A stretch of 64,000 bases of DNA from Terriglobia bacterium (GTDB lineage Bacteria > Acidobacteriota > Terriglobia > Acidiferrales > UBA7541). The stretch lies in contig OY968796.1 of the NCBI GenBank assembly GCA_963695545.1, positions 640,001-704,000 on the forward strand. The letters run 5' to 3'. Within the stretch, counting starts at the first letter, position 1. Every line of letters starts with the position of its first letter. The position numbers and the translations under genes were made by a program. This document shows positions 1 to 32,021 of the stretch, one piece after another. The notes under the pieces are model-generated. The model saw nothing but the letters and a program-made list of their open reading frames with translations. It made no database searches and was not told where the DNA came from.

Positions 1-1
1 G

Positions 2-82
2 TTTTCACACTCATCCACACTCTTTTCCTGTATCCCCTTTGTTTGCCACTCTTACGCAAAACATGCCGGGTGTGTATAGAGG
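2..82 (+). repeat. Dispersed non-coding repeat element, copy A (truncated by the window edge)
   Basis: Aligns without gaps to the reverse complement of 31421-31501 (64/81 identities by hand count); ends in GCAAAAyATrCCGGGkGTGTATA. Confidence 0.8.
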
Positions 83-25687: not shown

Positions 25688-27067
25688 CTAGTTTTGCGGG
25701 TGAGATGCTTGAGAATTCCCCGACAGCTCCGCGACCACTCGCTCCAACTCGGGGCGGTTGGATACATTGCTGCCCGGTGCGAGCGCTCGTTTGAGCTCGG
25801 CAAGCGCGGCCTGCTTTTGACCAGTTTTGGCATAGGCAAGCCCCAGGTGCGCGGCAACGTCAGGGCTCGATGGGGCAAGAGTCTTGGCCACCTTTAGCGT
25901 GGACACGGCTTGAGAGTATTCACCCCGCTGGTACTGCACCCAACCCAAGGTGTCGCGCCCGTCGGCGTATTTCGGATCGCGCTTGACCGCGAGCTCGGCG
26001 AGGCGCAGAGCCTCATCCAGATCCTTGTCCTGATCCGCAAGGACCCACGCGATGTTGTTGCACGCCACCATGTTGTTGGGATCCGCCTTTAACGCCTGCC
26101 TAAAATCAGCGAGCGCCTGATCTGTGTGGCCTTCTCCCGCTTCGAGTTCCCCGAGACGGAGCGCGGCATCCGTGTTCGCGCCGTTAGCTTCCAAAGCCGC
26201 CTGGTATTGGGCCGCTGCGGAACGCGCGTCGCCTGCGGCGGCGTAGGCATTGCCCAAGATCGTCAACGTGGTCGAGTCGTGCGGGCTCTTGGCGAGCGCA
26301 GCTTGCAGTTGCTGTATCGCTTTTGGGGGCTCGTGATCGGAGAGATAGACATTGGCCAGCACCTGATAGGGCAAAAGGGTCTTGGGGTCCGCGGCCTTCC
26401 ATCCCTCAAGGACGTTCAGCCCATCGGCCTCGCGGTGCATCATCATCAGCGCATTCGCCTGGCCAAGATATCCCGCGGGCAGCTGCGGGGCGACTTCGGT
26501 AATCCCCTTGTACGCAGCAGCCGCGCCGGCGTAATCCTGGGTGGACTGCGCCATCACAGCCAGATAGAGGCGCGGCGTGATGTATTTGGGTTGCAGTTCA
26601 ACCGCGCGGGAAAACTCACGACGGGCCTGGTCAGGGTGCTTCTGCAAAAGTAAGACGACGCCCTTCATGTTGTGCGCCTCAGGCAGGTTATCCTGTCGCT
26701 TGAGCACTTCGTCGACCATGCGGTCCGCCTGGTCAAGCCGCTGTTGGGTGATCGCGATCTGCGCCCGCCCGAGCGTGGCATCGAATTCGCTTGGATCACT
26801 CGCCGCCAACTGCTGGAACAGCGCGTCCGCTTCTTTGAGCTGCCCCTTACCGAGGAGATCGACCGCCTGGTTGTACTTGGCGTTGGTCTCTTGCGTCGGC
26901 AGTGGCTTGAGCGTGTCAGGGATGGTATCGGCGCGCAGCGCGACAGTGGCCCACGAGAAGGCGCCGGCCAATACCAAACACGCGGCGCACGCAGCAAACG
27001 TGTGGCGATTCGGACGATTTGTGATGCGATCCATGATGTACGCCGGACGATTCCAGCCAGGGGACAT
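25688..27067 (-). CDS. Exported tetratricopeptide-repeat protein (PrsT-like)
   Basis: Signal-like segment, serial TPRs, NNIAW...DTLGWVQY...AHLGLAY. Start uncertain (27067 or 27034). Confidence 0.82.
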   Translation of the reverse strand: MSPGWNRPAYIMDRITNRPNRHTFAACAACLVLAGAFSWATVALRADTIPDTLKPLPTQETNAKYNQAVDLLGKGQLKEADALFQQLAASDPSEFDATLGRAQIAITQQRLDQADRMVDEVLKRQDNLPEAHNMKGVVLLLQKHPDQARREFSRAVELQPKYITPRLYLAVMAQSTQDYAGAAAAYKGITEVAPQLPAGYLGQANALMMMHREADGLNVLEGWKAADPKTLLPYQVLANVYLSDHEPPKAIQQLQAALAKSPHDSTTLTILGNAYAAAGDARSAAAQYQAALEANGANTDAALRLGELEAGEGHTDQALADFRQALKADPNNMVACNNIAWVLADQDKDLDEALRLAELAVKRDPKYADGRDTLGWVQYQRGEYSQAVSTLKVAKTLAPSSPDVAAHLGLAYAKTGQKQAALAELKRALAPGSNVSNRPELERVVAELSGNSQASHPQN

Positions 27068-27177
27068 GTTACAGCGACTGATATTCCCGATGGCTCCGAA
27101 AAAAAACTTGGGGCGGCGTAATGTGCAATCTACGCCGCCCCTTGGTGTGTAGCAGCTCACAAGGAGCTGCAGCTAGA

Positions 27178-28302
27178 TTAGGCCGCGTTCGCCACGGTGC
27201 GGAACTTGCGGAGCAAGCCAAGCCCACAGAGACCGATGAGCATGAGGCCGAGCGATCCAGGTTCCGCGCCCGACATCGGCGGCGGCGCATTGAATCCGGC
27301 CAAGCCCTCGACGTCGAACACCTCCAGGAAGATGTTGTCGTCATAGGAGGAGTTTGAAGTGGTCAGGCTGATTGTGTTGCCGGCGAGGGGGTCGATCAGC
27401 GACGAGATATTGTACAGTTCATGATCGGTGTCGCTGTCCGTGTCGCCAATCGGCGTGACCGGATTGGAGTAAGCCGTGTCAATGGAGCCGTCGGAATTCA
27501 GCCCCAGAACACCGGCCGTGATCAGATCGCCGTTGGAGCAGCCTGTGGCGTTGGGTTCGGTTCCGCCATCTTGGCTCTCATCGCAGTTGCCGGCGGCGGA
27601 CGTGAGGGTGCTGCCATCGACCGTGATGGTTGAAGTCTGCTCGTTGTAAGAGCCATCCAAGTCGTAGCTGAACCCATCGCCGATTGACATGAGGACCGTG
27701 TCGCCAGCGGGGTTCGAGGCAAATTCAATACTCGATGTATCGCCGCCGCTGGCTGCTGCACCGTCAAGGATGCCAATCGAGTTCGTGGGCAGCGATGGGT
27801 TGGAGTAGACGACAACCAGCACTTCGCCGTCCTGGTACGCGGTGTCCGATTCGGTTACGGCGAAGTTGTAGACGGTCGATCCGGAAGAGAGGGCGCCTGA
27901 GGGATTAACTTCAGCCGCGACAATCGAGGTCACATTCGCGACACCGGCCTGCAGGTAAGAGGCGTCGGAGTTTGCGATCAAGGCCGTGTACGAGACTGAG
28001 TTGCCGTTGAGCGTGCCGCCGGCGTAGACGCTTGAGAAAACGTCACCGGCGGAATAGCCAGTTGCTTCAAACGTTCCGTTGAACGTTGAGGTGTACAGGT
28101 AGGCAGCGACGACGGTCGATCCATTCGGAACGTCAGCCGTCAGGCCGTCGGGTAGCGTCGATGCAGTTGAACCACCCGCATCAACGGAGACGCCGTCGTC
28201 CCCGGTGAAGGTGTACGCTGTGGTCAGCGTGGCCGACGCCGTTGACGTGTAACCCATCATGATGAGTAGCGCCAGGGCCCCAATCAGAGCTTTAAATCTC
28301 AT
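27178..28302 (-). CDS. PEP-CTERM-like sorted surface protein
   Basis: Signal peptide; Ser/Thr/Asp-rich body; C-terminal AEPGSLGLMLIGLCGLGLLRKFR; GGAGG RBS. Confidence 0.82.
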   Translation of the reverse strand: MRFKALIGALALLIMMGYTSTASATLTTAYTFTGDDGVSVDAGGSTASTLPDGLTADVPNGSTVVAAYLYTSTFNGTFEATGYSAGDVFSSVYAGGTLNGNSVSYTALIANSDASYLQAGVANVTSIVAAEVNPSGALSSGSTVYNFAVTESDTAYQDGEVLVVVYSNPSLPTNSIGILDGAAASGGDTSSIEFASNPAGDTVLMSIGDGFSYDLDGSYNEQTSTITVDGSTLTSAAGNCDESQDGGTEPNATGCSNGDLITAGVLGLNSDGSIDTAYSNPVTPIGDTDSDTDHELYNISSLIDPLAGNTISLTTSNSSYDDNIFLEVFDVEGLAGFNAPPPMSGAEPGSLGLMLIGLCGLGLLRKFRTVANAA

Positions 28303-31420: not shown

Positions 31421-31600
31421 CCTATATACACCCCCGGTATATTTTGCGAAAGAGCAGAAAACACGGGACTTGCAGCGAAAGAGTGCGGATGAGTGTGAAA
31501 AGAAAGCGTGTTAAAAATGTTTCTTATGAGTGAGTTGCGCACTCTTTTGCAATGGACTGAAAGCAAATGGTTTGTGGGCGCGGAAAATGTGGTGATGGAC
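31421..31600 (-). repeat. Dispersed non-coding repeat element, copy B
   Basis: 31421-31501 is homologous to 2-82; internal perfect 10-bp inverted repeat AAAGAGTGCG (31478-31487) / CGCACTCTTT (31538-31547). Upstream boundary uncertain. Confidence 0.75.
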
Positions 31601-31679
31601 ACGACGCGATCCGGTCGCAGGGGACAGAGAGTAGAGCGAGGCGGAGGAGAATTCGAATTGGTGAGGGCGAACACGTAAG

Positions 31680-31708
31680 AGGATAGCATTTGTGTCCAGA
31701 GTTGTCAA
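31680..31708 (-). promoter_or_regulatory. Orphan near-consensus sigma-70 promoter facing the repeat element
   Basis: TTGACA-N17-TATCCT with extended -10 TG and an AT-rich upstream tract. Confidence 0.7.
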
Positions 31709-31743
31709 TAACTAAATGAGTATTCGAAATAAATTTCGCGGAC

Positions 31744-31774
31744 AAAAACGGGCGGAGGCAAGCTCCGCCCGTAC
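31744..31774 (-). terminator. Hairpin with U-tract (terminator or REP-like)
   Basis: ACGGGCGGAG-GCAAG-CTCCGCCCGT perfect 10-bp stem next to an A5 tract. Confidence 0.6.
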
Positions 31775-31920: not shown

Positions 31921-32021
31921 TGTCGCCCCTACGGGGCTGAAAACATTTGGTAAAAAATAAAAAGGGGCTTCGTACCCAGGGCTTACGCCCTGGGCTAAGC
32001 TCTGCCGCCCCTACGGGGCTG
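31921..32021. repeat. Composite REP/MITE-like element
   Basis: CGCCCCTACGGGGCTG repeated exactly at 31924-31939 and 32006-32021, flanking the hairpin CCCAGGGC-TTAC-GCCCTGGG (31975-31994). Confidence 0.8.

Follow-up and report, generated by a model that had tools for sequence, protein, structure and literature searches.

The DNA element studied here lies on the minus strand at positions 31,421 to 31,774 of the window (the whole analyzed stretch of 64,000 nucleotides from a Terriglobia bacterium, contig OY968796.1) and belongs to a family of about 110 short cassettes. We propose that these cassettes are likely pac-like start sites, at which a cassette-encoded adaptor of the small-terminase type brings a phage large terminase to host DNA; we put the probability of this reading at about one half. 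If it holds, an abundant soil lineage would have built a genome-wide gene-transfer grid from phage parts. The proposal builds on the observed anatomy, copy number and spacing of the cassettes, on a peptide tail shared with a phage protein and on a strand-asymmetric footprint around the copies. In the cassettes, a start codon and an open frame are also under selection, although the encoded protein is not constrained. The element is real and undescribed in the literature searched: full-text searches, with subscription papers and supplements outside their scope, returned no description, the available part of an acidobacterial prophage comparison mentions no such element (PMC5900883), and the accessible portion of PMC3025954 holds nothing further on it.

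An iterated core profile search of the 4.16-Mb single-contig genome (G000) found 91 distinct core copies. A genome-wide promoter-profile search returned 101 sites, and 79 of the 91 cores had a promoter within 1.5 kb. The sequence-only reading, which had described a multicopy, promoter-bearing unit without a named family, was thus borne out in both respects, as Rfam gave no match at gathering score or at E<1. Downstream of 19 of the 22 remaining promoter sites a second arm type was recognized by eye, and three of these 19 copies were cut by IS-like insertions. Since the 91 cores are joined by these 19 copies, the family has about 110 members; most statistics below refer to the 106 copies with a usable promoter position. 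The copies are 150-650 nt long, none carries more than one small gene in addition, and their promoter and arm subtypes form a mosaic of free combinations. Orientations were random, while the spacing (mean 38.8 kb) was more even than expected by chance, with a coefficient of variation of 0.62 versus 0.99±0.09 and none of 5000 random sets as even. The right-hand part of a second copy occupies window positions 1-82 on the plus strand; the full copy begins upstream of the window (genome 639,930-640,078). The ungapped 64/81 identity to positions 2-82 noticed earlier is exact, and the matched stretch is the tail of this fuller copy. The IS-like insertions that split three copies lie at G000:C1:248,050, 343,328, and 3,685,917; two share one arm position, and the transposase after one of the three is presumably IS1595-like. 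A copy in a related genome (G018, L074) has a junction resembling these insertions.

Read along the minus strand, the window copy starts with an operator-like TTCGAA palindrome, TATTCGAATA, at 31,721-31,730, upstream of the promoter. This sequence occurs 49 times in the genome, 48 of them at elements. On the upstream side, conservation tails off some 10 nt ahead of the palindrome, with no second core, and the element has one sharp end only. SOS control was considered and seems unlikely: the region upstream of lexA bears an RTTC-N7-RTTC repeat, which we take to be an SOS-type box, and not the element palindrome. A predicted extended −10 promoter of the sigma-70 type, TTGACA-N17-(TGC)TATCCT, follows at 31,680-31,708 (one site in a promoter scan versus 0.3 expected). 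A leaderless GTG start codon stands at the predicted +1 (31,672-31,674), a position conserved across promoters. The variable C-rich leader (31,575-31,671), which ranges from about 100 to 480 nt between copies, contains in this subfamily a second palindrome, AATTCGAATT, at 31,650-31,659. It is followed by an arm array of 3-4 degenerate units of about 35-40 bp (31,443-31,574), including an invariant 10-bp inverted repeat (31,478-31,487/31,538-31,547). In the alignment the element closes sharply on its right with a short inverted repeat around a G-tract (ATATAC-CGGGGGT-GTATAT, 31,423-31,442). The 10-bp repeat and the TTGACA-N17-TATCCT promoter (31,708-31,680) are present as first described. The arm repeats, which would be putative initiator-binding sites, occur in nearly all copies. 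A DnaA-type box was found 50-70 nt before +1 in 37 of the 106 copies, the window copy being one without a box; DnaA-box-like 9-mers have 115 genomic matches, 37 near elements versus 1.6 expected, and the same words also stand before dnaA.

The terminator-like hairpin that had been taken as part of the unit is indeed present (31,748-31,772), adjoining the element, but it belongs to a separate small repeat family and is inconstant: only two of the 11 copies of that family stand upstream of an element promoter. Because the hairpin is a separate repeat and the terminator scan gave one site versus 0.8 expected, the element is not generally insulated, in contrast to what had been suggested. In G018 many copies (L059-L078) were seen by eye to stack several arm-plus-G-tract modules of mixed types behind one promoter. 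A pattern search for arm plus G-tract was discarded as too strict, failing on G000 itself. Near the window copy, an Acido-Lenti-1 RNA motif occurs about 200 nt from the element (window 31,975-32,020), inside a GC-rich hairpin-repeat cluster between the element and a carboxylesterase-like gene; this motif is absent from the alignment with the related genome G003. A secreted-looking protein is encoded at window 27,178-28,302, adjoining a TPR protein, and its tail is one that we take to be PEP-CTERM-like. An upstream site resembling the palindrome and promoter also follows a similar secreted-type gene at genome position 3,876,005.

The start codon is found at one exact offset in 95 of 101 promoters (62 ATG and 33 GTG), as located with a promoter model that did not score the codon. 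From this start, 81 of 87 copies keep the frame open as far as the right end, versus 16 and 11 in the other frames and 5.2 after shuffling; 15 of 102 copies had no end call and are not in this count. Under a laxer end rule it is open in 94 of 99 copies versus 19 and 13. In the window the frame extends for 1100 codons on the minus strand, from the conserved GTG at 31,674 through the element to 28,372 and antisense to host genes, a frame overlooked in the earlier statement that no credible minus-strand gene follows for about 3 kb. A protein-coding reading of the leader frame was nevertheless rejected. Of 58 core motifs, 34 are read in one phase and 22 in another, the TGA-bearing phase being avoided (2). 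Mismatches among the 80 nearest pairs are flat over the codon positions (0.209, 0.209, 0.232), and 7293 of 21,306 aligned columns lie in shifted frames. The second arm type, read in a single phase in 15 of 15 cases, is an exception. Across the copies no conserved stop or conserved protein was found, nor the purifying selection on codons and conserved frame of a small-protein gene family.

Where the downstream gene is co-oriented, the frame reaches or fuses with it in 37 of 68 cases, and 26 of the 94 open copies face an antisense gene. Translational coupling to host genes was rejected as an explanation, as nine four-base overlaps among the 37 reaching frames are close to chance by our own estimate. 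We infer that selection acts on ribosome passage itself, which most simply would spare RNA polymerase Rho-dependent termination; a rho gene is present in G000, as judged by motif. Cassettes inspected by eye in other genera (L139, L140, L141, L142, and L137) lack an ATG or GTG at +1; leaderless frames may thus be a trait of some lineages only. That translation is under selection and the protein is not is a clear oddity in its own right, and the element accounts for a class of spurious ‘hypothetical proteins’.

The surroundings of the copies carry a pronounced strand asymmetry. Skew was calculated at fourfold-degenerate sites of genes on either strand, with genes taken from our own hexamer caller. 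On the sense strand the G-C skew is about −0.32 just upstream of a copy, changes sign around +4 kb, and reaches a maximum of +0.16 around +10 kb; the T-A skew around copies has the opposite sign. Position and direction of the elements explain the 1-kb skew with an R2 of 0.425, versus at most 0.034 in 100 shifts. A fitted oriC term came to −0.001, so that oriC leaves no skew of its own. Copies have their switch at a median distance of 4.2 kb downstream (IQR 2.8-5.3; 61 of 106 copies passed the filters), and 55 of 76 skew minima fall 0-10 kb downstream of a copy versus 5 upstream. An origin-like flip occurs at 98 of 106 copies versus 94 of 191 other promoter-like sites, and broken or promoterless copies mostly retain it. 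A switch at the transcript end was rejected (Spearman 0.22, p=0.09; convergent junctions no nearer than with permuted offsets), and a search for a Chi-like oriented octamer yielded only skew-driven words.

At the window copy the plus-strand skew rises from about 0.1 to 0.4-0.66 (flip score 0.39), with the step about 4 kb downstream at approximately 26,000-28,000 in 2-kb bins. In G004, where the element is absent, the same genes show a weaker skew (0.20/0.35 versus 0.43/0.57 with the element; one locus). Origin-like minima without a recognizable element were seen at window position ~14,000 (genome 654 kb) and at eight other places in G000, possibly representing lost copies or another class of site. 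A cis-element that explains more than 40% of the variance in synonymous-site strand asymmetry and replaces the usual oriC signal is unusual. It offers a candidate reason for the very low global strand bias of Acidobacteria, a group that has the lowest mean value in the available part of Table 1 of PMC4613354.

The promoter pattern matched 6 of 151 genomes of the class and gave no control matches. The footprint was reproduced in G018, where downstream exceeded upstream skew in 14 of 20 cases (3 ties, 3 reversed), in G008 (6/6 with data), and in G085 (3/3); G135, with a promoter match lacking arms, was left out of this count. In samples of 100-220 kb per genome, oscillating skew with a standard deviation of 0.16-0.41 per 5 kb was present in G015, G122, G145, G023, G180, G169, and G129; it was weak in G022 (0.12) and not seen in G050 (0.07-0.09). 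The strongest oscillation sampled was in G122, which has only an unrelated large terminase (TerL), and in G169, where no TerL was found.

The connection to packaging comes from a gene carried by four copies. Starting 30-60 nt after the right end, these have a zinc-finger gene of 139-174 codons, whose product consists of a Cys3-His finger, a helical core, and a tail with the motif IIxD[ML]PxP. In G018 the leader frame often ends at the start of this cargo gene (by eye). The cargo profile is matched by 2367 representatives, and named homologues of the cassette protein come from Candidatus Acidiferrales and Acidoferrum. No named family or fold emerged from family, fold, and Atlas searches: the cargo model (pLDDT 67) returned nothing at E≤0.001 in fold searches, and Atlas structure rows with DUF5681 and DUF5763 fell under the Atlas threshold. 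Among about 3340 predicted proteins the tail motif is limited to three cargo proteins and one small protein from a phage head cluster, which encodes TerL and capsid at 3.38-3.42 Mb and has the small tail-bearing gene inside it. An orthologue of that protein directly precedes terL in four of the eight relatives examined. Furthermore, 25 of 62 viral loci (those with at least 700 nt upstream, out of 80 fetched) have a tail-bearing reading frame in the 1.5 kb preceding terL, compared with such a frame in 1 of 76 control windows; 7 of these 25 viral tails score above inclusion with the cargo profile. In lambda and P22, C-terminal tails of the small terminase (TerS) bind TerL, according to the available text of PMC9611059. 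On this sequence evidence the tail appears to tie the cassette to one large-terminase family, and a TerS-type adaptor is predicted from a tail common to terL-adjacent genes, with no fold or family match.

Cargo and cassette were confirmed in none of the viral contigs, the cargo profile gave no match in the 80 terL loci, and phage and plasmid records held neither cargo nor cassette DNA; these sequences are chromosomal. Since finger and arms are absent from phages, an adaptor with its own DNA site is suggested, comparable to the TerS of phage-inducible chromosomal islands (PICIs) as described in the accessible part of PMC12829572. Cargo genes were detected in 18 of 151 class genomes and, by eye, stand behind arms and G-tract in five of six cases inspected in the family and in most of those inspected in a second family. 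Besides G000, 4 of 5 genomes in the genus have the TerL family, as do 14 of 21 family genomes, at no fixed locus, with cluster gene order and flanks differing among relatives. The 22 family genomes scored divide into seven with both cargo and TerL, five with cargo only, eight with TerL only, and two with neither; in the five cargo-only genomes the TerL profile gave no match at E≤1e-3. G018 has 14 cargo matches, 23 promoter matches, and the skew footprint, and three queries found no terminase in it. Because of the cargo-only genomes, and of the footprint in G018 and the oscillation in G169 with no terminase found, a resident cognate TerL is not needed, which is the chief difficulty for the packaging proposal. 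Infecting helper phages could supply it, an assumption for which 196 viral-contig stretches encoding relatives provide candidates.

The head cluster of G000 (G000:C1:3,384,000-3,420,000; L021, L022) sits at the terminus defined by KOPS-like octamers (maximum 3.38 Mb) and is split by an IS3-like element. Its O-like initiator gene is without the C-terminal domain found in G116, where the initiator gene (L040:6077-6817) contains about ten tandem 54-bp repeats, possibly iterons. One DnaB was found in G000, and no dedicated helicase for the cassettes.

Under the packaging proposal the promoter would fire under a palindrome-binding regulator and perhaps also DnaA. With a ribosome covering the transcript, RNA polymerase could pass the arms and the G-tract without Rho termination and, in copies that have one, reach the adaptor gene. 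The four gene-bearing copies would supply the zinc-finger adaptor in trans; it would bind the arms and, through its IIxD[ML]PxP tail, dock the large terminase of the 3.40-Mb family from a resident or infecting phage. Local DNA synthesis or cut-and-repair, centered some 4 kb downstream and extending roughly 20 kb to either side, may accompany packaging or uptake by a recipient and leave the skew footprint. At the mean spacing of 39 kb, most chromosomal positions would lie no farther than one headful from a site. Several results go against this proposal. Cargo and TerL are not associated in the 22 family genomes, the 4-kb offset does not follow from cutting at the cassette, and replication rather than packaging is indicated both by the DnaA-type boxes and by the flip, whose sign is G-rich-leading. 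Fold searches of the cargo are empty, and in G000 the head cluster is split and the initiator-like gene incomplete.

The replication signals suggest an alternative in which the cassettes are dispersed, transcription-activated origins for ordinary growth, with the arms as iterons, DnaA at the promoter, and the zinc-finger protein as a phage-derived initiator or loader. We regard this as rather unlikely, while several observations fit it: the sign of the flip at the copies, the clustering of skew minima just downstream, the vanishing oriC term, boxes like those before dnaA, the low strand bias of Acidobacteria, and a footprint in genomes without a detected cognate terminase. The layout also resembles the lambda origin, which needs transcription through the origin (available part of PMC3985674). 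For an origin of the iteron/DnaA type the skew switch is present, offset by a median of 4.2 kb, with a box in the 37 copies mentioned above. There is one rRNA operon (G000:C1:1,600,784-1,602,321); as a single case, it runs in the direction of the element-predicted fork and head-on to a fork from dnaA/oriC.

The range of the skew speaks to the same alternative. An additive short-range kernel fitted better than a saw-tooth origin model (0.424 versus 0.273), a comparison confounded by unrecognized flips in long gaps. With 109 elements and nine data-driven flips on a coarse grid, the kernel reached 0.496, a stochastic-origin model 0.416, and both together 0.504; the kernel is thus better than the origin models, though not decisively, and the latter add little jointly. 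In favor of dispersed origins, the 15 gaps longer than 55 kb retain a skew of about 0.1 out to 40 kb, and several long gaps have near-linear N-shaped profiles. We conclude that the signal is mainly short-range, which weakens multi-origin replication.

The replication axis of the chromosome also argues against dispersed origins. KOPS-like octamers trace a clean V, lowest at 1.38-1.46 Mb and highest at 3.38 Mb, and parS-like sites are found close to dnaA. Because of these two features the chromosome is not scrambled, and with ori-ter polarity intact around dnaA ordinary oriC replication is available. Only 559 of 1206 genes are co-oriented with the predicted local forks, so that gene orientation favors neither reading, and 20 housekeeping loci show no strand preference (8 co-oriented with local forks, 9 with oriC). 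The T-A skew runs opposite to the G-C skew, whereas most bacteria are concordant according to the accessible text of PMC8941118, and dispersed origins leave the TerS tail unexplained. Neither the 4-kb offset nor the discordant T-A skew is accounted for by any reading. A bacterium with about a hundred sequence-defined origins would be the consequence if dispersed origins were correct. It is similarly doubtful that both functions are combined, with the chromosome copied from about 110 phage-derived, transcription- and translation-activated sites, a domesticated small terminase as the specificity factor, and the same sites feeding phage heads; such multi-origin replication would give a bacterium a eukaryote-like layout.

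Less probable still, in our judgment, is a reading of the cassettes as selfish, non-autonomous mobile elements or as regulated promoters that have been co-opted, in which the frame carries transcription onward and the skew is a by-product. The downstream gene is co-oriented in 79 of 106 copies and often reached by the frame, and the mosaic of promoter and arm types would fit as well. The window site is filled in G003, with the same promoter and a different arm type, and holds no element in G004; the G004 site is unrelated DNA, diverged beyond reading of the junctions for an empty-site comparison or a target-site duplication. Contigs of four DNA runs gave no informative joint. Against such a by-product of promoters, more than a quarter of the open copies point at an antisense gene, the flip position is independent of the orientation of the downstream gene (medians 4166 versus 4344, p=0.74), and just downstream the sense strand is rich in C, the reverse of what transcription-linked deamination would leave. 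The even spacing also counts against this reading, and no paired ends or adjoining recombinase were seen. The sequence-only suggestion of mobilization by a recombinase found no support: only one end is sharp, the two-ended terminal inverted repeats of a MITE or non-autonomous IS are absent, no tyrosine-recombinase motif is closer than 5.7 kb to any copy (one match to a crude motif), and the window site is inherited in G003 and empty in G004. The other suggestion, a family of structured non-coding RNAs, has a strong predicted promoter and a mean folding z of −1.9 (25 sampled copies) in its favor, a value that the inverted repeat alone can give, but it is largely refuted and very improbable: the consensus fold of 47 aligned cores has only five pairs, −3.2 kcal/mol, and no compensatory changes, the start codon is conserved and the frame open, and a conserved terminator and an Rfam match are absent.

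Comparison with known systems places the cassettes outside established classes, as they fail membership of the PICI, MITE, and ncRNA classes. MITE and REP sequences are likewise short, intergenic, and multicopy; the cassettes differ from them in having no two-ended terminal inverted repeats and in having an internal promoter, an open frame, a cargo gene, and a kilobase-scale footprint. PICIs are single islands of 10-20 kb. They carry an integrase and replication genes, and no integrase, att sites, or replication genes were found in the element; here there are about 110 evenly spaced sub-kilobase cassettes per chromosome, four with an adaptor gene. The resemblance to PICIs and SaPIs is in the element-encoded small terminase that redirects helper packaging to its own pac site, and in lateral transduction, in which adjacent chromosomal DNA is moved (available part of PMC12829572).

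The lambda origin, as described in the accessible portion of PMC3985674, similarly has a promoter-driven, translated transcript passing through repeats and an AT-rich tract. The cassettes differ in that the arms are not inside an initiator gene, the switch is about 4 kb away, and there are about 110 chromosomal copies. Cyanobacteria with multiple origins also lack a global GC skew, but in the available text their initiation is irregular, DnaA-independent, and without a defined element (PMC7198777), whereas here the footprint is regular and goes with one sequence family, and both dnaA and the ori-ter polarity are intact. Packaging of host DNA into particles, as in gene transfer agents, is predicted here from genes and sequence. 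The DsGTA of Dinoroseobacter has regularly spaced initiation sites, with packaging proposed in both directions; the part of PMC5786225 available reports seven peaks without sequence motifs, in contrast to the defined cassettes with promoter, arms, and adaptor gene found here. The BaGTA of Bartonella couples phage-derived, local bidirectional replication to the packaging of host DNA, using one origin, an amplified region of 461 kb, and a conserved helicase locus (accessible text of PMC2697382), versus many sites, a reach of about 20 kb, and a head cluster at no fixed locus. By analogy, the cassette would work most like a combination of the TerS redirection of PICIs and the run-off packaging of BaGTA.
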